Shown: positions 24,653 to 52,896, counted from the first letter of the stretch. The stretch: DNA of 64,000 bases from an uncultured Nitrososphaeraceae archaeon (GCA_963837175.1 CAWIMJ010000034.1:129055-193054); one strand, 5' to 3'. The notes: generated by a model from the letters alone, not told the origin. Numbers and translations: made by a program.

Positions 24653-25594
24653 ATGATTATTCCTGTTAATGAAGATTTAGTTATAAATGCAGTTGAGAAG
24701 GTAAGCAAGAGTGTAGTAAATATTGCCAGCGTAAGAATGGTACAAGACCAGTTATTAAGAGTATTTCCTATTGAAGGTGTTGGTTCAGGTATCGTAGTAA
24801 ATCAGAGAGGATACATACTTACGAACAATCATGTAGTTGACAAAGCACACAACTTAAAGATTACATTAAGAGATGGAAATGTATTCAATGGAGTAGTTAT
24901 AGGTACAGATAAAGTTAGCGATTTAGCCGTTGTAAGAGTAGATTCAAAAGATGCACTTCCATCTGTACAATTTGGAAATTCAGATGAATTAAGAATAGGA
25001 CAAATAGTTATTGCAATAGGAAATCCGTTTGGACTCGTAGGAGGACCAACTGTAACAGCTGGAATAGTAAGTGCATTAAACAGAAATCTAGAGTTTGAGA
25101 GTGGCATACTTGAATTGATTCAAACTGATGCTGCTATAAATCCTGGTAATTCGGGTGGTCCCTTAGCTAATACAAATGGAGAAATTATAGGAATTAATAC
25201 TGCTAAAATGCCATATGCACAAGGTATTGGATTTGCAGTTCCTATAAATGCCGCTAGAACAATAATGAACGATCTAATAGAAAATGGTCGAGTTACTAAT
25301 AGGCCGTGGATTGGAATTGCTACTATGAAGATAACAAGACAATTATCACAATACTATGGGTTACCAGCAGATGAAGGTGCGCTGATTACCAAAGTAGAAC
25401 TGTATAGTCCGGCAGATAATGCTGGATTGCGGAAAGGAGACATTATTGAATCAATTGATGGAAAGAGAATAAATGATCCTTCTCAGATATCATCCAACAT
25501 TCGTAAGAAAAGCGTTAATGATAGTATTGGAATAACCGTTAATAGATATGGCAAAATCTTTGAAGTTCAGGTTAAGCTTGATGCACATCCTTAA
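24653..25594 (+). CDS. htrA: HtrA/DegP trypsin-like serine protease with PDZ
   Basis: TNNHV, DLAVV, QTDAAINPGNSGGPL, C-terminal PDZ (SPADNAGLRKGDII). Confidence 0.95.
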   Translation: MIIPVNEDLVINAVEKVSKSVVNIASVRMVQDQLLRVFPIEGVGSGIVVNQRGYILTNNHVVDKAHNLKITLRDGNVFNGVVIGTDKVSDLAVVRVDSKDALPSVQFGNSDELRIGQIVIAIGNPFGLVGGPTVTAGIVSALNRNLEFESGILELIQTDAAINPGNSGGPLANTNGEIIGINTAKMPYAQGIGFAVPINAARTIMNDLIENGRVTNRPWIGIATMKITRQLSQYYGLPADEGALITKVELYSPADNAGLRKGDIIESIDGKRINDPSQISSNIRKKSVNDSIGITVNRYGKIFEVQVKLDAHP

Positions 25595-26180: not shown

Positions 26181-26969
26181 ATGGCACCAGGGTTTGGTAC
26201 TTCTCATAAGAGTAACGACTATAGCAGGTACTATTTCCTAATGTATGAATGGCTTCATAGAAATAAATCATTACTCTTGGAACTTAATATAATCAATATA
26301 ATTATGCTGTGTTTTATTCACTTTTTTATCCTCACTGTACAAATTAATCCATCATCTACTGTCGAAAAAATTCTACAGATTATTACTATTAGTCTAACTT
26401 CTATTATAGCACTTTCTATTATATGGAGAGGGTCAATTTGTATAGCCATAGGTATCCTTGGACTTTCTCTGATATATGCAGGTATTCTTCTCCCGTCTTA
26501 TGGTCTCAACATTTTGCAAGACGAAAAACAAAGTTACCCTGATGGTAAAAATGAAACATCTATGCTAACTATAGACCAGCCAATATTTGTGGCTACTCAA
26601 GGCTTCTTCTTTCTAGGAATAGCAATGGTTGTACTCAGCATGATAATTGGGTATAGGCCAGATCTATTATATGTTAGAAATAGACCTGAGCCATTGGACA
26701 CAATTTGGGATAAATATCCTATATGGTATGATTATAATAAAAAACTTGTAGGGCGTAGATATTCTGAACCTATGGTACGTCTTAAGAGTTTAATGACAGC
26801 TGAAGAAAACTATCTTGTATGGCGTTATGAGTATATTCTAGCTGACGTCTATGATACACCACATCTAGTTAAACCAGACAGTTATCTTCCAAAAAGCTCG
26901 AAAATTTTCAGGGATAAAGAAAGTGGAAAAATGATTGGCAAGGCAAAATATATCGGATATTTTGTGTAA
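26181..26969 (+). CDS. Hypothetical membrane protein
   Basis: About four hydrophobic helices plus soluble C-terminus. Confidence 0.7.
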   Translation: MAPGFGTSHKSNDYSRYYFLMYEWLHRNKSLLLELNIINIIMLCFIHFFILTVQINPSSTVEKILQIITISLTSIIALSIIWRGSICIAIGILGLSLIYAGILLPSYGLNILQDEKQSYPDGKNETSMLTIDQPIFVATQGFFFLGIAMVVLSMIIGYRPDLLYVRNRPEPLDTIWDKYPIWYDYNKKLVGRRYSEPMVRLKSLMTAEENYLVWRYEYILADVYDTPHLVKPDSYLPKSSKIFRDKESGKMIGKAKYIGYFV

Positions 26970-27569
26970 TATACTAACTAACAAAAGTTCGTTTACAGAT
27001 TTTTCTTAATATGTAAGGTTTACTATGCTTAAAAAATCCTTTTACTTGGTTTTTAAAACATATACGAAATTATGTTAGGCAGTATAGTATATACACATGA
27101 TACGATGATCCTAATGATATTAGTTTGTTTATTATATATCTATGACGAAACTATTTATGTGGCCGATGGTTAGAAAAGCGTTTTGTAAAGTGTTATCATA
27201 ATTTTATTGTTATTGTATAGTAGTAACAGCCTTTCACAAAATCTTTTGTTAAAGATATAATAGAGTATTTACAATCTATGTCATCATTATCCATCCACTA
27301 CTGCTAAATACTGATATTACTACTAGAACTACAGCAGCTGAAATTCCAAGATAGTATATGAAAGCAGATTATGTTGAAACTTTTAGGAAAAGGAATTATT
27401 ATTCAAAAAGAAAAAGAACTAAAATTACCGCTTACCTGCGCGATTACAAATGCTTATGATGCTGTATCGAAGAAGTAAGATCAACTATTCAATATTCTTA
27501 ATTTTTTTCTCATCTGTAGATAGTTGACATTATTCTAAATATATTTGCAAATTCAATAATAATCTAAAT

Positions 27570-29186: not shown

Positions 29187-31454
29187 TTGAGTTTAAGCAG
29201 GATTGCCGAAACCCCCTATACTCTTGTAGTTTGTGAAAAACCCGATGTCGCACGAAGAATAGCACAGGCCCTGGGAATCTCAAGTTTTGAAAAAATATCA
29301 GGAGTAGAAATAGGAAGAGGAAGAAGCATACCAACTGTTTTTTCCGTAAAATCATCACCTAACAGTCGACGCTTTGTTGTATGCTCTGCATTGGGACACT
29401 TGTACGGATTAGTCGATGTTAAAGGAAACCGAAGTATGTATCCTGTATTTGATGTTAAATGGAGACCAATTTTAAAAAAGAGAAATGGAAGCGGTCGAAA
29501 AACATCTACAAAATCTGAACAAATCATAAAGGCAATATCCTTGCTTTCCCGGAAAGCTACAAGGTTTGTTCATGCTTGTGATTATGATCAGGAAGGTGAG
29601 GTAATTGGGTACAATATTCTCGAATATGCCTGTAATAACAAATATCAAAACTCACTAAGGGCTAAATTTTCAACTCTCACAGATGAGGAAATAAGAAATT
29701 CATTTGATAATTTGTTAAAACCTAGTAAAGGATTAGCAGAAGCAGGGATATCCCGTCATATGGTCGATTTTATTTACGGAGTTAATCTCTCAAGAGCCCT
29801 TACACAATCTTTTAAGGTTAGCAATGATGGCAAAAGGTATTATAACTTATCAATGGGCAGAGTACAAGGTCCAGCCCTTGCTTTTGTAGTGGATAGAGAA
29901 ATAGATATTAGAAAACATATTCCAGAACCTTACTGGAGGATATCCGCAGAGTTTAAAAAAAATGGAAATATAATTAACGCACATTATTACCAGCAAATAG
30001 TAAACACACTATCTAAAGCCACTTCAATAGTTAATGCCTGCACAAACAAAGAAGGTAAGATTACGGGCATTAAAGATCAAAAGGTCACACTCAGAGCTCC
30101 AACTCCTTTTAACCTAGGTGATCTACAGAAGGAAGCATATAGAGTATTCAAATTTTCTCCCAATTATACGCTAACAATTGCAGAGAAACTATACATCCAT
30201 GCACTAATTTCTTATCCAAGGACATCTAGCCAAAAGCTGCCTACTTCCATAAACTATAAGAAAATTATTTCAAGTCTTTCCAAGATTGGTTCTGGTATTG
30301 GTAGCAGTAACGAAGGTAGTAGTTGTGGTGGTCGTATCAGTAATAGTAGTAGTAGCAGTACCTATACAAACCTGACTGCAATATTGCTCTCAAGAGATTA
30401 TCTTTCTCCAAACGAAGGAAGCAAAACTGATCCAGCACATCCAGCGATCTACCCTACAGGGGAGATGCCAAAAGCTAAACTTGAGGGTGTTGAACTTAAA
30501 TTATTTGATCTCATAATCAAAAGGTTTTTGGCAACTTTTGGAGATCCAGCGATAAGTAAGCACACAACAGTCACGATTCTCATTAATGATGACCACGTTT
30601 TCAAAGCTGATGAAAAGAAAATTATATCTGAAGGATGGATATTCTTTTATAAACCATATATTAATACTACTGGTCTAGGAACTCAAACTAATCTGCCAGC
30701 ACTACACGACGGTGACATATTAAAAAATGTTGCTGTAACAAAGGATGAAAGGTTTACCAAACCTACATTTCGATTCAATCAAGCTAGCTTATTAGAAGAA
30801 ATGGAAAAAGAAAAGATCGGCACTAAAGCCACTAGGTCAGATGTTATCAGCACGCTCTTTAAGAGAAATTATATTAGTAGTACTACTATTACTTACCAAA
30901 AAGAAAATAATGTAGCAAGAGAAGGAGGAATTCAGGCTACAGATATTGGATTTGAAATAATACAATCAATGCGCAAATACATACCAAACATAATATCAAC
31001 AGATCTTACCAGATCATTGGAAGAACAACTGGAAGGAGTTGAATCAGGCAAAATCAGCAGTGCGTTTGTGATAGAATATGCAATAAGTAAATTAAAAGAA
31101 GCAATTGTTCCTTTCAAGGAAAAAGAGGTTGAGATAGGCCATCAAATAACTGATGCAATAGTAAGTACTAAGAATAAACAACAAATAGTACTAGGAACTT
31201 GTCCCGCTTGTAGTAAGGGCAGCTTGATAATTATAAGATCAGGCGTAACAAAGAAGAGGTTTGTAGGATGTTCTAATTATTCATCGGGTACATGTAATGC
31301 GACCGCTCCACTACCACAGAAAGGAATAATAAAAACTACGGGTAAGAACTGTTCTGTATGCCGTTGGCCCATAGTCAAGGCTGTTTACGACCGTCAGGCA
31401 GATCATAACTGGAGTTTCTGTATTAATATGCACTGTCCATCAAAAAAGCAATAG
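29187..31454 (+). CDS. topA: DNA topoisomerase type IA
   Basis: TOPRIM CEKP and DYDQEGE, GRVQ, catalytic ISYPRT, AHPAIYPT, GTKATR, C-terminal Zn ribbons. Confidence 0.95.
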   Translation: MSLSRIAETPYTLVVCEKPDVARRIAQALGISSFEKISGVEIGRGRSIPTVFSVKSSPNSRRFVVCSALGHLYGLVDVKGNRSMYPVFDVKWRPILKKRNGSGRKTSTKSEQIIKAISLLSRKATRFVHACDYDQEGEVIGYNILEYACNNKYQNSLRAKFSTLTDEEIRNSFDNLLKPSKGLAEAGISRHMVDFIYGVNLSRALTQSFKVSNDGKRYYNLSMGRVQGPALAFVVDREIDIRKHIPEPYWRISAEFKKNGNIINAHYYQQIVNTLSKATSIVNACTNKEGKITGIKDQKVTLRAPTPFNLGDLQKEAYRVFKFSPNYTLTIAEKLYIHALISYPRTSSQKLPTSINYKKIISSLSKIGSGIGSSNEGSSCGGRISNSSSSSTYTNLTAILLSRDYLSPNEGSKTDPAHPAIYPTGEMPKAKLEGVELKLFDLIIKRFLATFGDPAISKHTTVTILINDDHVFKADEKKIISEGWIFFYKPYINTTGLGTQTNLPALHDGDILKNVAVTKDERFTKPTFRFNQASLLEEMEKEKIGTKATRSDVISTLFKRNYISSTTITYQKENNVAREGGIQATDIGFEIIQSMRKYIPNIISTDLTRSLEEQLEGVESGKISSAFVIEYAISKLKEAIVPFKEKEVEIGHQITDAIVSTKNKQQIVLGTCPACSKGSLIIIRSGVTKKRFVGCSNYSSGTCNATAPLPQKGIIKTTGKNCSVCRWPIVKAVYDRQADHNWSFCINMHCPSKKQ

Positions 31455-32690
31455 CAACAACAGCTCTAAGAGGCTGAAACTATTTAGAAGTTTGTATCAA
31501 TAATAAATGGAAACATCTGTAGAATTTACCAGTACCTGAAAAAGAAAACTACAGAAAAATTCGAATAACAAAAAGAAAAGAGCATTATTGGATACATCCC
31601 AGAAGGAAAAAGAATAAATGACAATAACAAAAAAAGTTATAGATAAAAACAATAATATGACATTTGACTTTCCTTCTATGACAAGAACTGTTATTTTTTA
31701 GAATATTAAAAATTCAATTCTTCCGATAGTTGCTTTAGACTAAAGTTTTGAATCAAAGCAGGTCGGAAAATATTTCATGGTGTCAGCTGAAGAGTTAGGA
31801 GAGTATAAAAAAGATAAAACAAATAATAGGTGGAAAATAATCAACGACAAATTCTCATAATACCTTCTGAAGGTTAGCCAAATAAGTCTTGATCATCCCT
31901 TTACCATTTCAGCAATTATTCTAAGTTCAGTTTTAATATATCAGGCTACCATAATATTAGGATTTGATAATTTAATTTTTAAATTTATTCTAATTACTTT
32001 ATGAATTTGTTAACAATACAATTCATCCTTGAAATCGTTCATTGTATAATTTCATCTCGAAGTGCAAGGCGTTCTTCACTAATCTTGTATTCTAATTTTA
32101 AGCGTTACTTTAACCAATCGCTTATCCACTTTCTAATATCGTTTAGAATGTTTCCGCTACTCTTCTGCTCCCACCCATCAATATCATGTTCTAGTATCAT
32201 GCAAGTTTATCCATGACATCAGAAAAGCTTACCTCAAAGCGATTTCAATTTAATAGTCAAAAGTCTGTTAAATTCATATAGAATATTATCAAGAAGATTA
32301 CATAATCAAAGAAGCATAAAAATGCAGAAGATGAAATTGTACCTTCAGACTTTGAAACTTTATCACGAAGGCACATTTCGATAGAAAGCATGCTGCAAAA
32401 CGATACTTTTCTGTTAATAATTTGCGGTTTTGTGTTAACATGAGAAATTCCTTGTTAACAATCTAAGCGTTATTGCTTATAGGTTACAATGCAAAGATGA
32501 TAGTATTTTGCAGATTGTAACACTATCAGGCTCTATGTCATGCACAATTTCATCAAATTCCTTTTCCATTTCGTTACCTGCAGACGATATCAATATTATT
32601 GCTTTCTCTTCTCCATTTTTAAGAGTATATATATTTTGAAAAATATTTAAGTTTGGCTCCTTATGAGTAGAGGTAATTAGACAAGGAATT

Positions 32691-33029
32691 TTACATATGC
32701 GTAGAGGCCGAATCGGTTAACCCTGTCGTGGTGGGTTTAGGCTTTAATATAACTCTCATACCTCCTTCTCCTTTAGCACTAAGTACAAGCTTTGTTAGTG
32801 CTCCTGTCTCCATCACGCCACTAATATTTAGTTCAATTGATTCTACCTGATATTGTTTGAACCAGTCTGCTATTGCACCCATACTTGTGGATAGATGCTT
32901 AACCATGCCTTCTTCTATACCACCTCTTTTTGATATATATTCATCATCTGCTTCTTCATATTTTGGAAATGCCAGTTCTACTTTTCTGATAGGATTTTCT
33001 ATGTTGGTAGATTTATTAGAATCTTCCAT
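32691..33029 (-). CDS. Pepco/Trypco-like peptidase-co-occurring small protein
   Basis: Strand-KRGG-helix-YQVESIELNISG..TG..LVLSAKGEGGMRVILKP; downstream of caspase on same strand. Confidence 0.6.
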   Translation of the reverse strand: MEDSNKSTNIENPIRKVELAFPKYEEADDEYISKRGGIEEGMVKHLSTSMGAIADWFKQYQVESIELNISGVMETGALTKLVLSAKGEGGMRVILKPKPTTTGLTDSASTHM

Positions 33030-33124
33030 AGTAATTTGTAATATTGCAATTATATATGATTACTGATCAAAAATATGATGATAGTAAGTATCCGTTAATA
33101 CATAAAAGACAACTATAACCGCAT

Positions 33125-33251
33125 TCATCATGCCATTAATCCATAGTTCAATTGATTCTACCTAATATTGTTTGAACCAGTCTGCTGCTGCTATTGCACC
33201 CATACTTGTGGATAGATGCTTAACCATGCCTTCTTCTATAACATCTCTTTA
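33125..33251 (-). pseudogene. Partial degenerate duplicate of the Pepco-like gene
   Basis: Near-copy of ~32810-32930 with extra GCT repeats and CAG>TAG stop. Confidence 0.85.
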
Positions 33252-33908
33252 CCATAGATAAATTGAAATGGATTTGCCACCATTATCATAGAATATGCGG
33301 CCAATACCGAAATAAATGACATCATTAATGTTTTATTTTTCAAATGTCTGTTTGATGTTAATGCTGAGATTATGAAATTGGCCTTAACATCAGAAGGAAT
33401 TTCATAGAAAATAAGGAAGTTTGATAGATATCTTCAAAGGACAGAAGAATCTGAATTTGATGTCAAATCATATGAGCTCAAATTCGTAGAAAATGACGAT
33501 AGAGAAAGATTTCAGATGGGTCCATTAAATAAAACAATCATGGCTAGAGGAGGCGAAAAGAAGAAAAGAACACTTAATCAATACGAAACCACCACTTATA
33601 ATTGACGCAGAACGGGTGTAGAAATATCCTTGTGTGATAGATAAAAAATATTATTTTTTTACAATACTATTTTTAAATCATCTATACATTTATGATGTTA
33701 CTTGTATCAGACAATTGAAAATAAGGAGATTCTTCTGTAGCATTCTCTATTTCAACCCCTACCCTTTTTTTCAGCTATATATCTTGCCTTTAAGCCCCAA
33801 TCTCTGAGTGGATAAGAATTGAGGATATTGGTATCCGCAGTGAGTTTTTAGTTGGCTTTTCTGCCAAAGGCTAGTAGATACAGGCGAGCACCCCTGGTTA
33901 AATTATTG

Positions 33909-36119
33909 TCATGGACGATAAATCTTTATCTCCATATTAGCAGTAGTCCACTCGTTGCTTGGAGTAGCTGAAGAATTAATATGACGTGTAACAGGCCTAT
34001 CTTTGGTAATTCAGCCATTAGTTGTTCTAAGGGATTAGTAGGTTCACCAGCACCACCACCTCTCGTAATTTCTCGTCGTATAACTGGTTGGTCTAATACT
34101 GGAAGCTCAAGCCACCGGAAATTAGTCTGATCTAACGTTGCAAAAACCTTGATCACATCTTTGCCTTCCTTGTAATCTGATGGCAAATCAACTTGCAAAG
34201 GAAATAATTCCTCATGACCTGGATCGATAGGTATAAAATAAGCACCAGTGCCTGATGGATATATTTGACTTACGCCCCAATCTGGCTGTAGGTCAAGGAT
34301 AGTCACATTAAGAACTTTTTTTGATGTATTCCTTATTCGTAAAATCAGTTTTTGCCCAACCTCTGCTATCTTTGTATTTCCCTCAGCTGCAATTGGCTGC
34401 AAGTCGCTCAGTCTGTCGCCACGCTCATAATCATCTGGAACTTCAAATAATTCTACGACAAGTTTTCGAGATAATTCTGAAGCAGCATCAAGATTATCTA
34501 TTAATTGTATATTGCTATATTTTGTTAAATGTTCAAGCCTTTGTATGATCTTAGAAACAGATCCACTGTCATTTATCATTAAAGGAGGGTTTAAGTTAGG
34601 AATAGCATTACCTGCTGGATCCCAAATTTCGTATTCCCCTTGTTTGTTAATAGCTATTTGAAAATCAGCCTGATCATCAATGTCTGCTAGTGCTAGTTCT
34701 AAAAGGCTTTCATTATTTTTGTTTTTCTCCATTATGGTATCCCTTATTTTATCAAGTGCTTGCTGTTGGGTCATAGTTAGATTGCGAGTTGTTGTTAATG
34801 ATGGTGATAATTCTTTATTGTCATTAATCTCATTATTTTCATATACTAAATACACCTTTCTCTTGAGACGAACATCTACAGGGTTTATTAGGACAGCTTG
34901 TGCTCCTTGTTCTATATTACCTCTACGAAAATCTGCGATAATCTTTGCCCAAGAATCGGTTGCCCCCCGTTTATCAATCTCAACTATCGCTAATCGCTTA
35001 TCAACCTGGCCAAAGTCGGTAATAGCCAATGGATAGATAGCAAATCTTGTACCTTTTCTGATACCATGAGACTGACCTGCATTTAGCAGCAATAGTTCAT
35101 TTGACCTATCTATCTTCATAACTGAAACTGCATAGACTGTCTGTAATTTATTAATTCCAAATACTTCCCGATCGCCTTCACCTTCAAGCATTGGAGTCTG
35201 CAGAGGAAATTGACTATGAATTTGGGCTACAACACGATCATGTATGACTTTATAGGTAAGGCCTTTATCTATTTGTTCAAATGATTTTAGAAACCAATAT
35301 GTAAGAGCACCATTTTTTTCGTTTCCTTCAAACGCATACTCATAAGCAGATTCTGAAGGCCTGCATGCTCGCTAAGAGTACATAACCTTTTGGTTGAGGA
35401 AGCCAACCGCTTGCAGAAAATCCTCTTGTGGTTGCTGCTGTCGTCGTCTTCGTTGTTGCTGTAGTTGCTGCTCCTGAACTCGACAAACCTTTCCAAATCA
35501 GCTCCAATTCATCTATTGAAGCTATTAAGCTATCTTGAGGTCTTGGAGTTTTATCTTCAACGTCACTACCGCGCACAGTAGCACCCCCTTTACCTCTGGT
35601 CAGGCCTCCAGAATGACAACTATCTATTACTAAGGTAACAATCAACTTTTTGTCCAACATCCTCTTTAACAACGCAGCAATCTCAATGTCCCTTAGGTGA
35701 CGAGTTTGCGGGTTATCAATATCTGCTGGAACCAACGTTTCATCAAATGCATTTGGTCCTTTTGTATTTGTGAGTAAAGTCCTTATCCTCCCTCCATGTC
35801 CAGCATAATGAATGTAGACCTGATCTCCAGCTTTAGCTGCTTCAATTATTTTATTAAATGCATTCTTTATATTTGTGTATGTTGGCCATTTTTCTTGTGA
35901 TTCAGTTGGTTTACTAGAATCAGTATTACTGCGCGAACTAGTTAATTTTAGTATATTATCTGCAGAAATTCCCTTTACTTTACGGAGCAAAAAATCTTCG
36001 ACATGATTAATATCCCGAACACATCCTCCAAGACTAGAGTACAGAGGATTAGTGAAGTAATAATCTATTCCTATTAAGAGAACATGCAGATTTGAATTTT
36101 CGACATTAGAGTTACTCAT
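33909..36119 (-). pseudogene. Caspase-family (C14) peptidase with C-terminal beta-sandwich (DUF4384-like) region; frameshifts ~35370 and ~34010
   Basis: LLIGIDYY, LGGCVRD, HYAGHG, IDSCHSG; repaired LAACRPSESAYE..NGALTYW..QTPMLEG; tail TRHINSSATPSNEWTT. Confidence 0.9.
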
Positions 36120-36818
36120 TATTTATTATTCTCGTTTGTAAAATCATAAAAACTAGTTATTAAATGATTTTATTTCAATACATCAAAGATCAAGGTATAG
36201 GATGTGCAAAGGTGTAATCTTATTTTACCTACTACAACAATTTCTTGATACCAAAGTTGATTCATAGATAGAGTTTTTGTGTTTATTGCCTTAATCGGTA
36301 TATTCTCTAGAACTTGTGCGTCGTTAATAATTTTTTCAAGTCTTACAGGCTTATTGTCATTCCAAACCCATTTCAATTAGATACAATCTAGAAAATCAAC
36401 CATCAGAATCATCATATCAATTAATAAAAACTTCTTTGAGGTTTATGTTCCATGGGAAAAGCATTGATCCTGCACCAACTTCCTAAAACCCAATTCGTTT
36501 TTCTAAATAAAAAAAGAATGACTTCAAGCTTATGTGCACAGATGGATAATTTTGTTGAATGCTGAATAAATAGCCTTAAATTATTATAGAATATAAAATA
36601 AGGTATCGTGACTAAAGTTATATAGTTCCAATTCTACTGAATACTATCCTAGTTTCTGCTGTTTCAAGAGCATTTCTGAATTTATGATAGCATTATAATA
36701 ATAATATTCTTAAATTGCCTTTAGAAAGATAAGTGTTAAGTACTTACAAAGATAATAAATATATTAAATTGCAAGATAATATTAAAAAAAGAATAATAAT
36801 AATACTCATTACAGAATA

Positions 36819-37190
36819 ATGCTTATTGATGATGAGCCCGATATTATTACAACATTTAAAGTAGGACTAGAAGAGAATGGATTTTCTGTTACTGCATTTC
36901 AGAATCCTTTCGAAGCATTGGCAACACTTAAGAACAGCAATGAAATAACTTATGATCTCTTACTGATAGATATAAGATACGATGGTTTGGATATTGATGG
37001 ATTTCAATTATACCAAGAACTTAGAAATTCCGGTAAAAAACTTCCTCCCGTATGCTTTATTACAGCATTTCAAGAATATTATGATAGGATAAAACAATTA
37101 TCTCCAGAAATAGATATTAAATGTTTTATTAGGAAACCAATTCAAATAGTAGATTTAATAGCACGACTAAAGCAAGAATTACAAGCTTAA
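36819..37190 (+). CDS. Stand-alone response-regulator receiver domain
   Basis: LIDDE, DLLLIDI, FITA, FIRKP. Confidence 0.9.
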   Translation: MLIDDEPDIITTFKVGLEENGFSVTAFQNPFEALATLKNSNEITYDLLLIDIRYDGLDIDGFQLYQELRNSGKKLPPVCFITAFQEYYDRIKQLSPEIDIKCFIRKPIQIVDLIARLKQELQA

Positions 37191-38443
37191 TTATAAGAAA
37201 ATTCTAGCTGTGCAACATGAACTGCTTGATACCTGAGCGCATTTCTTTACTATGAGTTTACATATTTGTTATATCGTTGTCTGTAAATTATATTTATTGT
37301 ATAACAAGCGGATACTTGGCATATCATTTGTATCAGATATAATTATTTATTAATGATTCAACTTAGTAGAGGTTTTGTCAATCTGAATTGTATATGGATC
37401 AACGTTACGTGAAGTTAAATTACTTTAATTATATGCCAAATCCGATCGCAATATTTTCAAAAGTAAACAAGGCATATCTTGAAACTGCTAAAGATATATT
37501 TAGATCTAAAATGATAGAATGTTCTGTTCTACCTCCAAAAAGTTCAAATCGCAGATACTACTATTTTTGTCTCCAATATTAAAAATATTGTAACACATAA
37601 ACGTGAACAGTCCAAGTATCACTACCTGATTGTTGGAATACATATAATATCATGAAACCAAGTAAAAAAAATTTTTGTCGTTACAAGTTACCTAATTTAC
37701 ATTTAAATTAATTCATTGGTTCCATTGTACAAGCATAACAAAGATTGAGCAATTACCAATTAAGACAAATGAAACACTTGATTCAAATTATCAGTTCTAA
37801 GCTCGGCAGGAAATATTTGACACAGCCAGCTTTTAATCTTACATTTTCTTTGTCCTTGATTTGGGAAATTGGTTATTATTCTCCACATTTGGCAGAATTT
37901 GCATATTAGTTGAAATAACTTGGTATGAAATTCGCAGGATATTTGCACATATTATTAGGAAACCAAGATTATTATTTATAATAATTGGAATGAAGTATTA
38001 GTAGTCATTCAAATAAATAACAATATGAGAGGGAAAAGGATTATATTTTATCCCCAATACTACCAAATATGGTACGGAATTTGCATATATGGATATCTCG
38101 CATGAGATTTTCTCGATGGGGGAATCCATATCTATGGATTTGGACAATTATTTTCGTTCTAAAGACGCTTTATAGGAATAAAGAGATTGAATTTCACAAG
38201 CTATTAGCGAGTGTGTTATACCATAATCTAATACTATATAAAATGAAAAATGAATTCTTATTGGGTCAGCCAGCATCAAGACAATTGTTGGTAATGTATA
38301 TGCATTTGTATATTCCCTTTGGAAGCATCTCACTTAAGGCAATGACTACCTATACTAGATCGTATATTTATCATAGTATCAGAGGGAATTTTCAATGACA
38401 AGTTATTGGATGCTAGGTTTAGCCTTAGAGGGGATACTATCTG

Positions 38444-39782
38444 TTGTCAAGTGATAAAGAATCTCCAAATCGTAAGGCAATAATTGTAGGCGTAAATCAA
38501 TACGAACCAGGTTCAGATATAACAACTTTAGCAGGACCAGAGAATGATGCAAGAGAGGTTTATGAACGATTTAAAAATAATGGCAATTTTGACATTTCGT
38601 CTAATCATCTCTTGTTAGGGCCAGATGCTACCAGGAGGAAAATTTTGAAAGCTGTTAGTGAAATATTTCGCAGGAAGGTCAATAATGATCTTGTAGCCTT
38701 GTATTTTTCCGGCCACGGGATGCTGGATGAAAATAACGAAGGTTATATCGCACCTTATGATATGGATCCCGAGGATCCATATGTTAGCGGTATAAATATG
38801 GAAGATTTAAGAAATTATATCTCTAAATCTGAAAATAAAGCAAGTGTAATTATATTGCTTGACTGCTGCTATGCAGGAATAGCTACAAAAGATGGCCCTG
38901 CAAAATCTGCTACTCTTATGGATAATCCTAATACAAAGAATCTATATGCTACGCAACTTCAAAAGATCGTTAAATCTTCTGATCAAGCCGATACTCAAAA
39001 TGGAGGCAGTGGTAAGATAATACTTGCATCAAGCGAAGCAACTGCAGTTTCAAGAGAAAAGAATAATTGTACACACCTTGGTAAAGAGGATCCCCATACT
39101 CATGGTGCATTTACATTTCATCTAATAAAAGGATTAGATGGAGAAGCAGCAGATCCTGATACTGGAGTTATTAGAATAGACAGCCTTAGAAGATATATTG
39201 AAAATCAAATGATGGCTGAAGAAAGACAAAGACCAATGTACTATGTTGCAGACGCATCTCGTATAGAGAGCATAAAAATAGGAGTCTCCCAAAAGCAGTT
39301 TAACGCTAAAATACTGAATCTGATCGAGAATGCAATTAAGCAATCTTCAATCAAGTATCCTAATTCTCCTCTAAATGATATACGTTATTTGACAGATGCA
39401 GCCAAGAAGCTTAGCGAATTAGTTAGTTTAGATCAAAATAATAAAGATATACCAAGGCTACAGACTAGTATCGATGAAGCAGTAAAAGCATATTTTGACC
39501 CAACACTAGAGTGGCTAAATAGAAACAATACATTTGCTAAACCTAAGGTTGATGAAATAAAGCCTGGCCTATATGACTTTGAATTACCCGATTTAGTTTT
39601 AAACCTATCTTTTAGTGATTTACAAAAAATGGATCAAAACAAACTTAACAGCATGATAGTTATATGTACCTGAAGTTGCAAGAAATACAATATTTACGTC
39701 TGAAGATGACCCGAGGTTAAGACTTCTTCAAGGAAAACTTCGTGCATCATTCTTAACAACCAAACAATCTAGCGCATCATGA
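38444..39782 (+). CDS. Caspase-family (C14) peptidase with helical C-terminal domain; probable frameshift ~39670
   Basis: AIIVGVNQY, YFSGHG, LDCCYAG, HGAFTFHL; shifted frame EVARNTIF...SSAS ends at 39782, adjacent to the next start. Confidence 0.85.
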
Positions 39783-42700
39783 TTGACAATGAAGAGATTT
39801 TCTTCACCTTCTATTGACAATATTGCAGAGGACAATACAAATATACGTCAACTTATTCGTAACGCAGAAAGTAACCCATCTGACTATAATGCCTGGAATA
39901 AATTAGCTGAAAGACTATTAGAGGAAGAAGAATACAAGCAGGCTATAATTTCCTATGACAAAGCTATAGAGATAAATCCCAATAACAAGGATTCGTGGTA
40001 TAATAGAGGACTAGCACTTACCAAGGTCGGAAAGTATGATGAAGCTATCCAATCATTTGATAAAGCCATAAGCATAGATCCAGACCATATTTATGCATGG
40101 AATAGCAAAGCCCATCTTCTCAATTACTTAGGTAAATTCCGAGAGGCTATCTCATCTTATGATAGAGTAATAGATATAGATGCAAATAATGTCATTGCAT
40201 GGTATAACAAGGGATTAGCATTTAGCAATCTCGGTAAATATGATGAGGCTATTTTATGCTATAATAAAGTACTAAAAATAAATGCAAATAACACTGATGC
40301 ACTTAATGCTAAAGGTTTAGCTCTTGAAAGACTTGGTAAATATGATGAGGCTATTTTATGCTATAATAAAGTAATAGAAATAGATGCAAATAACACTGAT
40401 GCACTTAATGCTAAAGGTTTAGCTCTTGAAAGACTTGGTAAATATGATGAGGCTAATCAGTATTATAACAAAGTCAAAGAGATTTATGCCTTTCAGGTAA
40501 AAGAGTATAACGAGAAGGGTGATTTTCTTAGAGAATCCCGTCAATTCGGAGAGTCAATCAAATCCTATGATAGAGTAATAGATATAGATGCAAATAATGT
40601 GATTGCATGGTATAACAAGGGATTAGCATTTAGCAATCTCGGTAAATATGATGAGGCTATTTTATGCTATAATAAAGTACTAAAAATAAATGCAAATAAC
40701 ACTGATGCACTTAATGCTAAAGGTTTAGCTCTTGAAAGACTTGGTAAATATGATGAGGCTATTTTATGCTATAATAAAGTAATAGAAATAGATGCAAATA
40801 ACACTGATGCAATATATAATAAAGCTCTATCTCATGATAGATGATGGGAAATATGATGAGGCTGCAGAATTGTTTAACAAGATCCTTGCTTTTGATCCTG
40901 CTAATATCTCTGCTCTAGATTCTCTTCATCTGTTGTATTCAAACTACACATTTGAGTTTGATAAATCTCTGCCAATTGCTATGAAATTGTTTGAAATACA
41001 ACCTACCCCTGAAAGAAAAATGGTGTTAGCAGAAGATTTCATAAAGACAGGCAAATATAAAAGAGGAAGAGAACTTGCTTTTGAGGTTAAAAAAGAAATC
41101 CCAGAGAACAAAATAAGGCGTCAATCTATTATTAGGTTTCTGATATTATCCTCGTACTTGATGGAAGGAGATTCAATTAAAGGAAATGAACAACTTTCCG
41201 ACTTTCTTAGATATTATAAAGAACAGGAATCCTTCAAAATAGAAGAAGATGAATGGAACTTTGAGGGATTAATTAAAGCAGTAAATCCTAACTCCACTGT
41301 ATGGTACACAAAAACCATTTTAATCGATCTGATTGACCTCCTAAGAGGTAAAGGAGACAGAGATAAGATCCTTGCCAGGTTAGCAGCGAATATTTCTGAG
41401 AGTCGCTTACAAATAAGTCGTCGAACCTCTACTGGCTGGAAAGTTCTCTTACCTGTAATCATTTTTGCTGCCATAGCTGTGCCATTGATAATTATCACAT
41501 TTGCGTATATGAATATGATAAATCATCAACCTTGCTCTGTCGAAGGCAAGAGAGATCTATATACAATAGAAAAAGGCAAGCCAAGGGATATAGCAGTTAA
41601 CCCAATTACACATATTGTCTACGTAGCCAATTCTAATTCAAAAAACATTTTAGCTATAGATTGTATCAACCAAAAAATAATGAGAAACACTATACCAACC
41701 AATGGAATCGTTAGAGAGTTAGATGTTGATCCCACTAGTAACAAGATATACGCAGTAATTCCAGATAATAATAACATCTTATATAATTGATGGCAATAAT
41801 GATCTTGGTATCAATGACATTGGTGAGATGGTTGATGATTTAAGTAAAGGAAAATTTGATGAAATTATATATGACAGCCCTGAATACTATCCAAAACCCA
41901 TAAAAACATCTGCAGGAATGCCTGTTACTGTAACAGATATAGCCTTTAATCCAAAAACAGGCAAATTATATGCTGCCAATGATAAGTCTGATATAATCTC
42001 AGTAGTAGATTCCAAGAATGGACACTGTAAAAAATATAACAGGGGTAGGGGCAACTAAACTTAGCAATTCTCTTGTTGTTAATCCAAATACAAATAAAAT
42101 ATACGTAACCAATCCCACTTTACAGAAAGTATCAGTTATAGACGGTAAGTCAGATAGTATAATAGAAAACATACCAGTAGGTAGATATCCATTCAAGATA
42201 GCCGTTGACAGTAGCAATAATAGGATATATGTTGCACACCAACTCTCAAATGCAATATCAATTATAGATGGTAACAAAGATCAAGTAGTACAAATCCTGC
42301 CAACTTCATTGGAGAACAATGTGGAACTTAATTCAATAGCAGTCGATTCAAAAACACATATGCTATATTTGGGCTTTGAGCATAATGATGGTTCTCATTC
42401 AATACGCATGGTGAATCCAGCTACAAATAATAATACCTATATTCAGGTAGCCCAACAGCCAGTTGATTTGGAGTTTAACGTAAATAATTCCAAGCTGTAC
42501 GTAGCTGAATATAACAATGGCTCAATAGCCGTAATAGATAGTAATACTAACACTCTTTCAAATGATATCAGTTTAGGACAAAATCGCCTTCCATTTAATA
42601 TAGCTGTCAATCCAAAGACCAACAATGTATATGTGTCCAATCTTGTTTCCTACAATGGCAGCAGAGTAGTAGCATAGTCTCAGTAATAGATTCTGAAAAT

Positions 42701-43480
42701 GATAGTATTTTGAAAAATGTATCCATTCCATTTCAAGTATCTGATATGGCTGTTAATCCAAATAATAACAACATATATGTTGTTGGTGGAAGTAATACTA
42801 ATAATAATAATTACAATTACTTATCAATTATAGATGGTCAAAATAACACTAAATTGAAAAATGATATATCCATTCCATTCAGCCCCTCGGATATGGCTGT
42901 TAATCCCTATACCAACAAGATATACCTTGCTAATAACAAAGATTGGAGTGTCACAATCATAAATGACAAAGGCGATAATGCTACTACTATCAAACTCAGT
43001 ATACCTCCAGAATCCCTAGTAGTAGATCCTAATCCAGAAATCAATAGAATATATGTTACTAGTTATACAAAGCCTACTTCTTCCAAGGATGAAAATTCTT
43101 TTGATCCTATAGCTCTTGCATATCCTAGACTTACTCAAATACAGATTATCAATGGGTCCAATGATACTCTGGGATGGGAGGGGAAAATCCTGAGCCTAGA
43201 TCCTAAATATGGCTCTCTCATCCTGACTATTAATCCAGCTAACCATGATTTCCTAGCAACTTCTTTATCCACAGACACAATTTTATCGTGGGATGATAAC
43301 AAGAATGAAAAGGCCGTTGCTTCAGGACGTATTCTTCGTCTGCAAAACCCAATATCTGGTGGCATAGGTCCTTCACAATTAGCTATGAACCCCAAGGGAG
43401 ACAAGTTATACATTGTAAATCCCACCCTAAATGCAATAAAAGTCGAAGATCTCAAAGCTTTCGAATCTTCTAAAAAATGA
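39783..43480 (+). pseudogene. TPR - single TM - YVTN/YncE beta-propeller receptor-like protein split by ~4 frameshifts
   Basis: ORFs 39783, 40792, 41828, 42018 and 42710 join at overlaps; ~10 TPRs, TM WKVLLPVIIFAAIAVPLIIITFAY, many AVNP.TNKIYV blades. Confidence 0.8.
40158..40811 (+). repeat. Intragenic TPR DNA duplication
   Basis: 40158-40403 and 40566-40811 near-identical, offset 408 = 4 x 102 bp. Confidence 0.9.
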
Positions 43481-44089
43481 TGTCAGTCGGGCATCACTAT
43501 AGGTTTTGGTTAGACGTTATTTCAAAGGAAAGAAAAAAACAAACTAATAGGACAAAAAAAGAATATTCTTTAATATTACCAAATAAACTCCTACGGATTA
43601 AAATGCAGAAATGCCGAAAAATGTTGTCTGCCAGGACTTTATGTATTATAAATCCGGCTTGCAGCTTAGGAAAGCTTAATAAATAGCACAAGTATATAGT
43701 ATATATATGAAATCTAGAATACATATAGAATATAGTTCTATATATCTTGTGGTAACCGTAATTATGGTCCTATTCTTAGTTCCAGTTATGGTGAATGTTT
43801 CTATCCCGGTTATGAGGAATGTTCCTATCATTGCCTATTTTGAAGGGGGACATACAGGATCAATTACAAATGTATTTTGCGACCCAGATTGGGAATGCTG
43901 ACTGATACTCTACAAATCATTTATTATTTCTCAATGGTATTGGTCTGACGATAGTAGTAGAATTCTTTTGCTTAAAGTGGCTCCTATAATGGATTAACAA
44001 GTATATATACCAGATTTCTTTTTGGATTGACAACTATACTGTCTGTCTCATTGGTTATTATATAAAAATTATTTAGTTTGGTTTTGAAC

Positions 44090-44335
44090 TGATTCCTGTC
44101 TTAAATATAGAAGCTAATGATACAGACATATTAACTAACAAAGACATAGTTCTTATCAAGTTAGAAATATATGATGAGGTTCTTCAGGTATTAGACAAGA
44201 TATTATCTATAGATCCTAATAGTGCATAGGTGGAATATACAATGAATGTGTGGCATTTGATAGATTAAGCAAAGATTTAGAGGCCAAACATTACCAAGGT
44301 AAAGCGCTAGATATAGATCCTAATTATTTGGTGAA
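44090..44335 (+). pseudogene. TPR protein remnant
   Basis: NDTDILTNKDIVLIKLEIYDEVLQVLDKILSIDPN, KALDIDPN with stops. Confidence 0.6.
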
Positions 44336-44387
44336 TCACACGATTGAAAAACCTGCATACCTGCACCTGGTTTCCCTCCGCACGGCG

Positions 44388-44996
44388 CTATTGAAGTAAT
44401 GAGTCCATATATAGGCTCCCTGCAAAATGATGATTTGTCTTTTCATCATCTAATGAAATAGATATTGTCTTTCCTTCATTGATAGTAATATTAGTACCAA
44501 CATGCTTCCAAGGATTCATATGATTTGTTGTAACGACCGAGTCTCCTATCAACTTTACACTATTGTTAGGTGTTAGTGTTACCTCGTCGTCATTATCAAA
44601 GTTTTGAATTTCATGCGTATGTGAAGGTGGGGAAGGTGATCCATTGCTGTTGATAAATCTCATTGCTGTTCCAAAATCTTCCACATCTCCATCTATTACT
44701 CTCATACTAAAAGTACCATCACCAATCCATGTGTTAGGAAGAGCATAATTAATAGTGTTTATTTTACCAGTTGCTATGAAACTCTTAAATCCATTTTGTT
44801 GTCCTGGCAGCTCTCCTTGTTGTGGAGATATTGGTTGTTGTTGTAGTTGTGGAGATATTGGTTGTTGTTGTAGTTGTGGAGATATTGGTTGTTGTTGTAG
44901 TTGTGCAGACGCTTGCAAAGTATTTGGAATCAATATTGCTAAAATGACTGATAATAATACTCCTCCTTTTAAGAATGTCATATCTATATCTTTCAT
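44388..44996 (-). CDS. Secreted hypothetical protein (paralog of 13461-14126)
   Basis: Signal peptide, HTHEIQNF...ISISLDD..TNHHFAG; last codons probably frameshifted. Confidence 0.75.
   Translation of the reverse strand: MKDIDMTFLKGGVLLSVILAILIPNTLQASAQLQQQPISPQLQQQPISPQLQQQPISPQQGELPGQQNGFKSFIATGKINTINYALPNTWIGDGTFSMRVIDGDVEDFGTAMRFINSNGSPSPPSHTHEIQNFDNDDEVTLTPNNSVKLIGDSVVTTNHMNPWKHVGTNITINEGKTISISLDDEKTNHHFAGSLYMDSLLQ
44821..44901. repeat. 27-bp perfect tandem repeat x3
   Basis: TGTGGAGATATTGGTTGTTGTTGTAGT x3, encodes (LQQQPISPQ)3. Confidence 0.95.
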
Positions 44997-45420
44997 AACC
45001 CCGTCATATGGACAATCTTACTTAAAGTTTTCCTTTTTCAAGGAAAATGTCAGAATCATGTCTCAATCAGCAAAAGCCTATATAGACTGTAGCGTGTAAT
45101 TTTGACAAGAACCAAGTTAATGGTAGTAAGACCTATGATGAAACTTTCATAAATCAGTACTTGTAAAGTATTTGCACAGTCATTCTATATACTTGCTTAT
45201 TTTGATTAGTTGTAGGTTTTGTCAGATATTACATGTTTGATATAGTTTATATATTTCACTGCTCTAGTTATTCTCTTAAATTTAGAACAAAATGAAATAT
45301 TTAATTATCATTTAAGCATAATAACAGCAGTTATTTATTAAGGATGCTTCTATCTAATTCATTGAAGTTTCATCAATTACTACCATTATTCTTCTTCCCC
45401 TCTTCCTTGCCTTCTTCTCC

Positions 45421-51726: not shown

Positions 51727-52896
51727 TTGACCTTAGAGCTAGTTGAAAAACTAAATGAAGCATTGTCTACTGAAAATGCATCAGTAGATAGAATAAAATC
51801 AAGAATAGATCAGACACCGATACAAGAAGTAAAACAAAAACTAAAACAGCATTTAGAAGAAACGCACATTCAAAAAAGCAGGCTTGAAAGAATAATTACA
51901 GGATTACGAGGAAAGCCAACTGATGCTAAAGCAGATTTATCAAGGTCAAACCTACTTACTACAATAACTAAGAGAAAGAATTTTCCAAAGACTGCAGAAT
52001 CAAAAACAGAAAATAACAGTCGAGAAAATTCTACGCAAGAAGAAGACGAATTAATGCAAATGAAGCAAGATTTCATAATAGAACATGATGAACTGGTAGC
52101 TTATGAATCGCTAATACGGTCAATGCAAATGACAGATACGCCGCAGCAGCATCAGATTACATTTTTACTGGAACAGAGTATGCAAGAAGAAGAATCAATG
52201 GCGTATTGGTATAAAATACATACACCGTTGATACTTGATAACCTATGGCCAAAGATGATCCATACTTCAATAAGACGTGGTCAAAAGTTTCTTCTTAACC
52301 ACATTAGTTCCAAAATTCCGCTCATTATTATATATGCTGATCTGGTCGGCTCAACGAGCATGAGCATGACTTTACCCGTAGACAACCTTATTACAATAAT
52401 TAGAGCTTTTACCCACCAAATATCGCATGTTGTAGATAGTCATGATGGATATGTCTTAAAATACGTAGGCGATGCAGTAATCTCATTTTTTCCTGGTCGT
52501 GTCAACAATAAGAACAAATATCTTGCTTCAGAGACGTCAGTAGAATGTGGGAAATCGATGATTAATGTAATCAAGGAGGAGATTAATACAATCTTTAAAA
52601 GATATGGGTATCCAGAACTATTTGTCAAGATAGGGATAGATGCAGGAGAAAACGCAGTTGTTCAGTACGGCTACGAACAACTCTCGCCTATTGATATACT
52701 GGGATATAGTATGAATATAGCAGCAAAAATAACTTCTCTAACAGGTGCAAATAAAATATCTATAGGAGATAATGTATACAAATCATTAGATCATAAAAAG
52801 CAGTCAGAATTTCACGAGTTATCAATATCTGATAATCGATGGAAATATATTAACTATGGAACTGATAAGCCCTACAAAGTTTACACACTAAAATAA
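51727..52896 (+). CDS. DUF892/ferritin-like domain fused to class III nucleotide cyclase
   Basis: HLEETHIQKSRL, EHDELVAY, QEEE; ADLVGST, KYVGDAV, KIGID.G, DILG.SMNIAAKI. Confidence 0.85.
   Translation: MTLELVEKLNEALSTENASVDRIKSRIDQTPIQEVKQKLKQHLEETHIQKSRLERIITGLRGKPTDAKADLSRSNLLTTITKRKNFPKTAESKTENNSRENSTQEEDELMQMKQDFIIEHDELVAYESLIRSMQMTDTPQQHQITFLLEQSMQEEESMAYWYKIHTPLILDNLWPKMIHTSIRRGQKFLLNHISSKIPLIIIYADLVGSTSMSMTLPVDNLITIIRAFTHQISHVVDSHDGYVLKYVGDAVISFFPGRVNNKNKYLASETSVECGKSMINVIKEEINTIFKRYGYPELFVKIGIDAGENAVVQYGYEQLSPIDILGYSMNIAAKITSLTGANKISIGDNVYKSLDHKKQSEFHELSISDNRWKYINYGTDKPYKVYTLK

Follow-up and report, generated by a model that had tools for sequence, protein, structure and literature searches.

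A two-module caspase island with an apparently inactivated gene copy in a Nitrososphaeraceae genome

We analysed a 64,000-nucleotide (nt) stretch of DNA (the window, G000:C34:129055-193054) from a 3.81-Mb draft assembly of 58 contigs that is 91% complete and whose name-carrying homologues are labelled Nitrososphaeraceae archaeon. The window contains an island of five genes around two peptidases of family C14: on the minus strand caspase-1 and a small protein of 112 amino acids (aa), and on the plus strand a stand-alone receiver, caspase-2 and a receptor-like gene with tetratricopeptide repeats (TPRs), one transmembrane (TM) helix and a propeller. This divergent layout had been proposed in an initial annotation, and the list of open reading frames (ORFs) together with Pfam places all five genes as claimed there. 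The island is two linked modules, A (caspase-1 and the small protein, minus strand) and B (caspase-2 and the receptor, plus strand). That all five genes form one system is not established; they are two modules that are sometimes neighbours.

Results

Both caspases retain their catalytic residues. PF00656 matches the N-terminal fragment of caspase-1 with 50.1 bits and caspase-2 with 77 bits (cut-off 21.4), and an alignment of 14 caspases drawn from the window and related loci shows His (AGHGG / SGHGM) and Cys (IDSCHSGG / LDCCYAG) unchanged in 14/14, both window genes included, which bears out the intact His-Cys dyads of the initial annotation. We take the DxCHSG-type motif of caspase-1 to be the signature of Arg/Lys-specific metacaspases, with specificity here predicted at most. 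The PADLOC 'caspase' model PDLC02987 matches both fragments of caspase-1. No Pfam family matches its C-terminal ~400 residues above threshold, where weak FlgT_C and DUF4384 signals are all that appears; an AlphaFold2 (AF2) model of this region, built on a 57-row alignment, shows beta-sandwich domains joined by long helices (predicted local distance difference test, pLDDT, 83.7). The Foldseek matches of the model are generic folds, either Ig/PapD/MSP-like or of the Wzt carbohydrate-binding domain (best E 1e-4, whole-model TM-score <=0.26), and we read the region as a predicted binding region. The full caspase-1 architecture (655-737 aa) is widespread, with 404 proteins at E<=1e-5; where sources name these relatives they say 'caspase family protein', in Nitrososphaeraceae, Cyanobacteriota, Halobacteriota, Blastocatellia and KSB1. 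For caspase-2 the best NCBIfam model is NF047832, 'caspase, EACC1-associated type' (101.6 bits, with 104.6 for an orthologue; cut-off 140), which is also the best model for the caspases that partner relatives of the small protein (102-109 bits, below 140).

Linkage was surveyed in 200 same-family genomes, an evenly drawn sample of a larger group. Clear caspase-2 orthologues (E<=1e-60) occur in six of them (G030, G075, G161, G162, G165 and G185), and the same six carry the strong matches (E<=1e-20) to the TM piece of the receptor; TM-piece matches reach 48/201 genomes, and beyond the six strong ones these are mostly weak propeller-repeat matches (one in the unpublished G192). In the gene contexts examined caspase-2 and receptor are adjacent and co-directional in nine pairs from these six genomes, which belong to three other genera, so that the gene linkage proposed in the initial annotation is conserved elsewhere in the form of a recurrent pair. 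One pair each lies in G030 (L065, an intact 1278-aa partner with TPR, one TM helix and YVTN repeats), G162 (L068, a shorter 463-aa TPR/TM partner), G165 (L069, G165:C176, partner split in two) and G185 (L070, G185:C43), two in G075 (L067, G075:C2, partners of 1194 and 1691 aa) and three in G161 (L066 on G161:C194, L071 on G161:C135 and L031 on G161:C291). Caspase-2 stops and receptor starts abut or overlap in these other pairs. Caspase-1 is rare in the sample (5/200 genomes). It adjoins a caspase-2 homologue in three genomes, namely divergently in the window and in G165 and in tandem in G161, where a TPR/TM gene follows; G067 and G131 have caspase-1 orthologues without caspase-2 orthologues.

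The receptor carries TPR families on 39783-40844 and NHL/Lactonase/YncE-type propeller matches on 42018-43480 (Pfam; positions are those of the window), and a hydropathy scan finds one hydrophobic helix in the piece at 40792-41790. Each intact receptor orthologue likewise has exactly one strongly hydrophobic segment, within residues 476-613. The window helix is preceded directly by four basic residues and followed by one; under the positive-inside rule, such an excess on the N-terminal side suggests that the TPRs are cytoplasmic and the propeller outside. In related loci the same domain order is found within single polypeptides, namely C14-TPR-NHL (L080, 700 aa), C14-TPR (L085, and several in G067), C14-TM-PKD-Big_9-cadherin (L076, TM helix 358-376) and C14-TM-Big_9 (L015). 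These same-order fusions support the view that caspase and TPR/sensor protein are functionally linked.

The receiver scores 63.8 bits with PF00072 (cut-off 30.2). Its readable motifs DDE, LLLID, CFIT and RKP presumably represent the canonical acidic pocket, phospho-Asp, Thr and Lys positions. It starts at the Met of ...RIM-LIDDE, ~8-16 residues short of its orthologues, because there is no start codon upstream. Receiver orthologues of 47-51% identity lie upstream of the pair in L065 (same strand) and L067 (divergent). No P-loop nucleoside triphosphatase (NTPase) family matches caspase-1, caspase-2, the receptor pieces or the intact orthologues; the only such match is at the separate locus L121 (below). 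ORFs of 80-109 aa upstream of caspase-2 were considered as EACC1-like partners and rejected, being unconserved, of low complexity and without Pfam match; those upstream of the caspase-2 orthologues are likewise unconserved and match no Pfam family. As a separate observation, a ~215-aa protein and a long GMC-oxidoreductase (899 aa) recur beside caspase-2/receptor genes at three loci in two or three genomes (L067 17419-20000, L071 2819-6162, L072 10516-13859).

The small protein of module A belongs to a family of 262 proteins in a 90%-clustered set, none named beyond 'hypothetical'. At 50% clustering 128 representatives remain, all but one of 34-180 aa; the exception is a 795-aa repeat/helix-turn-helix protein. 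The family shares a conserved C-terminal core (alignment A1), WF.xY.V.SIEL.I.G...TG..TKL.VSA.GEGG.KV.LKPK. Its resemblance to Pepco and Trypco1 rests on sub-threshold, register-consistent profile matches, language-model neighbours and gene context. When 61 members were scanned singly, the top two Pfam families were Pepco PF24393 (5/61, best 0.0043; curated cut-off 27 bits) and Trypco1 PF19493 (4/61, best 0.0081; cut-off 24.6 bits), and in four of 69 representatives scanned one by one the C-terminus matches the last part of the Pepco profile, at positions 72-111/112 in P0187, P0195 and P0204 and 35-111 in P0221. A feature search of the ESM Atlas places Pepco/Trypco1 clusters at ranks 1, 3, 4 and 5 (scores 0.85-0.90), with 210/256 features common to the small protein and the first-ranked cluster. 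In the AF2 model (pLDDT 72) short helices at the N-terminus are combined with a C-terminal beta-meander of three strands, and no TM helix is seen by hydropathy, as in a soluble protein; size and predicted secondary structure fit Pepco. A four-copy complex prediction with A1 gave a median of 0.36 against a mark of 0.42. With the A1 profile, the matches listed from a 5.8-billion-protein set (the best 120) are all close relatives without Pfam labels and give no bridge to canonical Pepco.

Beside the small gene lies a pseudo-copy of its middle part (88-92% nt identity, 71% aa identity) with two in-frame stops, one TAG and one TAA, and direct repeats spaced 315/321 nt. As an observation in its own right, contigs of two soil metagenome runs (X2 and X3) skip 321 nt (32866 to 33188) between the two places at which small gene and pseudo-copy are identical over 53 nt; this may be a deletion allele removing the 5' part of the small gene, or the collapse of a 53-nt repeat by a de Bruijn assembler.

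Relatives of the small protein sit beside caspases in its close clade. Among 20 metagenome loci with relatives of 55-77% identity, a C14 gene is the direct neighbour in ten (L073, L076, L077, L078, L080, L083, L084, L085, L086 and L087); eight of these neighbours are confirmed by Pfam, and those at L077 and L086 are assigned by BLAST and near-identity to L076 and L087. At L079 only an NHL-repeat C-terminal piece is visible, resembling that of L080. Merging near-duplicates (L076/77, L079/80, L086/87 and L091/92) leaves a C14 neighbour in 8/16; of the remaining eight loci L081, L088 and L089 are shorter than 1.5 kb, and L088-L092 are partial matches. The orientation of small gene and C14 gene varies (upstream, divergent, convergent), as does caspase architecture. 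In the genome search 28/201 genomes, including G000, have a match to the small gene, and 29/34 places outside the own genome were covered, with G147:C188, G070:C1, G171:C8, G104:C4 and G142:C123 left out as weak or fragmentary. A C14 gene lies within 4 kb at 7/29 (L011, with both genes decayed, L015, L030, L113, L114, L115 and L116), and at one further place, L105, the sole partner is a TPR protein located where the contig ends. G185 has a small-gene homologue of 43% identity at a distance of 1.6 kb from its caspase-1 orthologue. A remnant of an L076/L087-type caspase beside the small gene of the window was looked for and not found. The protease link is specific to a clade, and holds for the close clade of the window protein.

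At one place of the 29, L121 (G119:C145, 1856-7877), the small gene is divergent from a 1220-aa Trypsin_2 / NPHP3_N-type STAND / pentapeptide protein, and an adenylate/guanylate cyclase-domain protein follows; this is an Avs-like module in a Nitrososphaeraceae genome. Two further observations concern caspases outside the island. On G067:C10, at ~297-320 kb (L032/L033), seven or more C14 genes are clustered; among them are caspase-TPR fusions of 515-841 aa, a caspase-pentapeptide-alpha/beta-hydrolase and a caspase-1 orthologue, and the cluster also contains a CHAT protein as well as the C-terminal domain of caspase-1 in two stand-alone copies. The own genome has a third, fragmentary caspase (G000:C19:6826-7242) that is 62% identical to the L076/L087 caspases, with YVTN-repeat genes nearby.

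The initial annotation had described the system as partly decayed, and the decay is more extensive than it noted. Mapping intact orthologues onto the window reveals seven frame breaks, two in caspase-1, one in caspase-2 and four in the receptor, none of them in a homopolymer. Caspase-1 orthologues of 728 aa (G185), 724 aa (G161) and 737 aa (P0291) map by tblastn in three frame segments (36119-35361, 35368-34001 and 34010-33912); P0291 is intact and ~96-98% identical to the window copy. The first caspase-1 frameshift follows KGYVLLA directly and so separates His and Cys from the p10-like part, with the result that the p20-p10-like catalytic domain is cut after the Cys in caspase-1. That of caspase-2 is uninterrupted, its shift at 39669 lying beyond the C14 domain. 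The caspase-2 ORF has 409 aa versus 447-456 aa in orthologues, as ~40 C-terminal residues are lost to a 1-nt shift at ~39669, and the true C-terminus (...PEVARNTIFTSEDDPRLRLLQGKLRASF...) continues in another frame and ends directly before the start of the TPR gene. All receptor pieces match the intact 1278-aa orthologue (L065:5494-9330) with four frame changes, and some sequence is absent between orthologue residues 676 and 822.

We compared the region with contigs of four soil metagenome runs from four studies (X1, X2, X3 and X12), a comparison of contigs and not reads that gives presence, not frequency. Every soil-contig indel listed at 39669, 41782, 42022 and 42665/42667 restores the reading frame (Table 1). 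The other indels among those listed, beyond which there are 34 more, are intergenic except for one in-frame 3-nt deletion at 42799. Hence at least 4/7 breaks are absent from soil populations 97-99% identical to the window, and one break is common to a second data set (X1). A further protein, P0290 (427 aa), starts at an internal Met and has the correct C-terminus, which suggests another record with the first caspase-1 frameshift but without the second. Because at least four breaks are absent from near-identical populations and one is shared, we read them as a recent, polymorphic inactivation, with assembly error possible for some sites, and the window copy is predicted to be non-functional or nearly so. 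Homologous loci have decayed independently in G165 (caspase-1 and receptor), G025:C189, G071:C1 and G081:C86. ORFs of at least 100 aa cover 59.5% of the genome, 49.8% of the window and 71.9% of the island.

Around the island are genes of kinds often seen in conflict islands: two patatin-like phospholipases, a fusion of DUF892 with an adenylate/guanylate cyclase, a PatG C-terminal-domain fragment and an HtrA-like trypsin-PDZ protease (9406-11031, 53512-54894, 51727-52896, 4850-5497 and 24653-25594). A ~120-nt repeat at 26968-27092 recurs across many contigs of the own genome in over 35 copies of 93-98% identity (75% in same-genus genomes) and looks like a miniature inverted-repeat transposable element or other dispersed element. 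The type IA topoisomerase at 29187-31454 has 65-74% DNA identity to same-genus genomes, versus 91-93% for nearby segments; with a second, 71% identical copy on contig C46 of the own genome, the island-side gene may be a divergent paralogue. On the minus strand, the ORF at 44388-44996 (202 aa) matches no family; its product carries a hydrophobic segment at the N-terminal end and repeats QQQPISP(Q)L three times. Rfam gave no match on 31000-45000.

Table 1 Features of the caspase island, in window coordinates, with the state of soil-run contigs at the frame breaks
Feature	Position	Strand	Basis or remark
Small 112-aa Pepco/Trypco1-like protein, candidate effector	32691-33029	minus	ORF, no family match
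Partial pseudo-copy of the small gene, ~135 nt	33126-33260	minus	sequence comparison
Caspase-1 pseudogene, C14 and ~400-aa C-terminal beta-sandwich region	33912-36122	minus	PF00656, PADLOC PDLC02987
Caspase-1 N-fragment ORF	35340-36119	minus	PF00656 3.9e-13
Caspase-1 C-fragment, 421-aa ORF	33926-35191	minus	PADLOC 'caspase' PDLC02987, same model as N-fragment
Caspase-1 frameshift 1	35361-35368	minus	directly after ...KGYVLLA, before p10-like part
Caspase-1 frameshift 2	34001-34010	minus	last 33 residues in another frame
Stand-alone receiver (REC), 123 aa	36819-37190	plus	PF00072 2e-17
Caspase-2, C14 and conserved C-terminal extension	38444-39781 (ORF stop 39673)	plus	PF00656 2.3e-21
Caspase-2 frame break	39669	plus	1 base left out in X2, X12 and X3 (there in one contig, 3.4 of 33 depth); no indel listed in X1
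Receptor-like pseudogene: ~9 TPRs, helical linker, one TM helix, YVTN/NHL propeller	39783-43480	plus	Pfam, intact orthologue
Receptor ORF pieces (five)	39783-40844, 40792-41790, 41828-42058, 42018-42677, 42710-43480	plus	
Single predicted TM helix WKVLLPVIIFAAIAVPLIIITFAYM	41437-41511	plus	hydropathy scan
Receptor frame break 1	40826-40852	plus	
Receptor frame break 2	41782	plus	one extra base versus contigs of all four soil runs (X1, X2, X3, X12)
Receptor frame break 3	42022	plus	absent in X2 (1 base left out); X1 covers the site and keeps the window state; no depth in X3, X12
Receptor frame break 4	42665-42667	plus	2 bases left out in X2 (42665 and 42667), frame restored; no depth in X1, X3, X12

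Discussion

The explanation that we favour, with a probability of about 0.55, is that two adjacent protease modules, both recurrent in soil Nitrososphaeraceae and acting through the mechanism proposed here, have been inactivated recently in this copy of the locus. Gene content, catalytic residues, conserved linkages and a copy that is broken in the window and in intact frame in near-identical strains are direct observations. By analogy, the modules probably make up an archaeal, receptor-coupled variant of the Pepco-protease systems, in which a protease licenses an effector. Judged from the sequences, caspase-2 would be cytoplasmic and translationally coupled to a single-pass membrane protein, sometimes with a receiver upstream. 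The propeller would sense a signal at the cell surface or membrane, and the TPR arm would recruit or release the caspase, as the C14-TPR-NHL, C14-TPR and C14-TM-PKD/Big_9/cadherin fusions also suggest. The caspase may then cut the small protein, probably after a conserved basic residue, between ISK and GG or behind LKPK; these would be candidate sites if the caspases prefer a basic P1 residue, as DxCHSG-type metacaspases do. Once cut, the protein would be the effector and would most likely form an oligomer that permeabilises membranes, as bacterial Pepco has been shown to do. The sensor-protease-effector interpretation of the initial annotation stands in so far as it fits published Pepco-protease modules, and falls short as a description of one five-gene system.

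A scattered distribution, changing partners and fast decay are what conflict systems typically show. Pepco itself is a protein of ~117 aa that forms a pre-assembled, denaturation-resistant beta-barrel of 9-10 copies and turns into a pore toxin when 2 kDa of C-terminal tail are cut off behind a conserved Ile by a linked protease; in SsPepco the tail is charged and proline-rich, and this cleavage rule comes from work on serine-protease partners (Evans et al. 2025, bioRxiv 10.1101/2025.11.14.688446). The same study equates Pepco with Trypco1/2, which had been defined beside trypsin-like peptidases (Kaur et al. 2020, PMC7159879).

Several findings weigh against our explanation, and many of them concern the small protein. 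It has no match in Pfam (even at E<=10), NCBIfam or PADLOC, so the 'Pepco-like' identity given in the initial annotation is not confirmed by a direct family match, and judged by profile it would not count as a member of Pepco. The four aligned Pepco matches, found among 69 representatives, score 15-18 bits, below the cut-off of 27; in 201 family genomes the Pepco hidden Markov model gives nothing above cut-off, only noise of the sort also seen in 3 control genomes. Among solved structures, the A1 profile matches PDB sequences at chance level only (E 0.17), and Foldseek of the small-protein model against the PDB gives no match at E<=0.001. After LKPK the tail has 14 residues in the window protein and 1-5 in the caspase-linked clade, and neither shows a conserved Ile-plus-tail pattern; with tails this short, the published activation step may not transfer. 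The wider family is also not tied to proteases: 9/29 genome places have MarR and/or SnoaL neighbours (L012, L013, L014, L016, L017, L018, L112, L119 and L123) and 11/29 no recognised partner (L106-L111, L117, L118, L120, L122 in the unpublished G063, and L124). The MarR/SnoaL clade, which is more distant (25-41% identity), has a divergent MarR gene, the small gene and then a SnoaL-like cyclase, with no protease nearby. Within the island, small gene and caspase-1 do not abut: 0.9 kb and the pseudo-copy separate them, with caspase-1 upstream on the same strand. The caspases that partner the close clade are also far more similar to caspase-2 (E 1e-18 to 1e-24) than to caspase-1 (1e-5 to 1e-7). 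The receiver is not established as a fixed component, being present in only 2/9 caspase-2/receptor pairs besides the window. The island has no DNA-level counterpart in six same-genus genomes (72-96% complete), where its flanks are not syntenic, and protein searches find none of the three genes in them.

The small protein could instead serve as a regulator, inhibitor, chaperone-like partner or substrate in a proteolytic signalling or surface-maintenance pathway, in which the receptor senses an envelope or matrix cue and the caspases process regulatory or surface substrates, apart from any role in death or defence. The sensors are indeed of extracellular type (YVTN, NHL, PKD, Big_9, cadherin), the receiver hints at phosphorelay input, related loci are neighboured by secreted-type peptidases (astacin, M14, S8, S41) and GMC oxidoreductases, and both the MarR/SnoaL and other non-protease contexts and the short tails, too short for published Pepco licensing, would be natural under it. 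We nevertheless consider it unlikely, given the fast turnover (independent decay in G165, G025, G071, G081 and the window), the patchy distribution of caspase-1, a best NCBIfam match to a conflict-system caspase type, and partner architectures that vary round a constant small gene and include a trypsin-STAND protein, which is typical of conflict systems (Kaur et al., PMC7159879).

Two other explanations concern the integrity of the locus. If the seven indels were consensus errors of the draft assembly, the system would be intact in the organism: the genome is a draft of 58 contigs, an intact caspase-1 of ~96-98% identity exists, every soil contig with an indel at 39669, 41782 or 42665/42667 restores the frame, and at 41782 all four runs do so. 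It is improbable, however, that errors would account for all seven sites, which avoid homopolymers and lie in a sequence that near-identical contigs otherwise follow for hundreds of bases without a single gap. At 42022 X1 has coverage and shows the window state, P0290 suggests a second record with the first caspase-1 frameshift and without the second, long window genes elsewhere are open (755, 613 and 541 aa), and the homologous loci in G165, G025, G071 and G081 are broken independently. Alternatively, caspase-2 and the receptor might be the sole real operon, with the other genes as unrelated neighbours in a variable, repeat-rich region. The non-syntenic flanks, the ~120-nt dispersed repeat, the infrequent receiver, the caspase-1 orthologues of G067 and G131 and the 0.9 kb with a pseudo-copy between small gene and caspase-1 would all agree with this. 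We give it little credence, since caspase-1 adjoins caspase-2 homologues in three genomes and two orientations, the small-gene homologue of G185 lies close to a caspase-1 orthologue, and adjacency of small gene and C14 gene recurs with many architectures.

Returning to the reading as two inactivated protease modules, a more far-reaching form of it can be put forward only tentatively, and we doubt that it will hold as a whole. Soil ammonia-oxidising archaea might possess outside-in 'receptor caspases', in which an extracellular propeller/PKD/cadherin sensor, one TM helix and cytoplasmic TPR and/or C14 domains, fused or in an operon, license a divergent, sub-threshold Pepco branch as a membrane-damaging effector. 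This would be a surface-sensing death or dormancy pathway with the logic of death receptor, caspase and pore, and the same fold would be re-used without a protease in the MarR/SnoaL operons.

Protease-licensed death effectors are a tested class in bacteria, and Evans et al. and Kaur et al. do not discuss them in ammonia-oxidising archaea. The word 'archaea' is absent from the main text of Evans et al. (bioRxiv 10.1101/2025.11.14.688446) and 'thaumarchae' from Kaur et al. (PMC7159879), who do note a few archaeal occurrences; among the listed full-text literature matches, whose coverage leaves out subscription journals, no relevant title deals with caspases in the Nitrososphaera lineage. If our explanation is right, a bacterial design for cell death or defence would extend to archaea, with an archaeal Pepco-fold branch that current Pfam models miss and with caspases wired to extracellular sensors, not to intracellular phage-protein sensors. 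It would also bear on the death or virus resistance of abundant soil nitrifiers. The window copy is broken and therefore a pointer to the family, not a working example; the intact alleles in sister strains would be directly testable.

Among known systems, the island is most readily compared with Pepco (Trypco1/2)-protease modules. Shared features are a stand-alone protein of ~100-120 aa beside a protease of the serine or cysteine type to which varied sensors are fused or coupled, the adjacency of small gene and protease in related loci, and one relative beside a trypsin-STAND-pentapeptide protein, the classical Trypco/Pepco partner. In contrast, the family described here is below Pfam thresholds, its host is archaeal (Nitrososphaeraceae), it has a very short tail after LKPK instead of a 2-kDa tail after a conserved Ile, most of its partners are C14 caspases that carry TM and extracellular domains, an NTPase being absent from the window, and part of it resides in MarR/SnoaL operons.

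The second point of comparison is the EACC1-caspase system ('System 4'), in which a constant N-terminal caspase is followed by one of up to 50 different C-terminal domains, and some members also have TM helices and extracellular domains (Kaur et al. 2020, PMC7159879). The caspases of the related loci share this plan, and NF047832 is the best model for caspase-2 and the partner caspases, although at 101.6-109 bits they remain below its cut-off of 140. Also unlike that system, no EACC1-like single-TM gene is conserved 5' of caspase-2 (by ORF and Pfam comparison; no EACC1 model was run by accession), and the small partner here is predicted to be soluble and Pepco-like. From both systems module B differs in that its sensor is a separate gene, with a receiver. 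Caspase-1 for its part aligns over its full length with ~700-aa bacterial caspase family proteins (C14 and beta-sandwich; 655-737 aa, PDLC02987), although the window copy is split by two frameshifts. Finally, the window caspases share the PF00656 fold and the His-Cys dyad with orthocaspases and metacaspases (MEROPS C14B-like), from which caspase-2 differs in its DCCYAG motif, and the partners here, a separate TPR-TM-propeller gene and a receiver, set the island apart from the characterised cyanobacterial orthocaspases.

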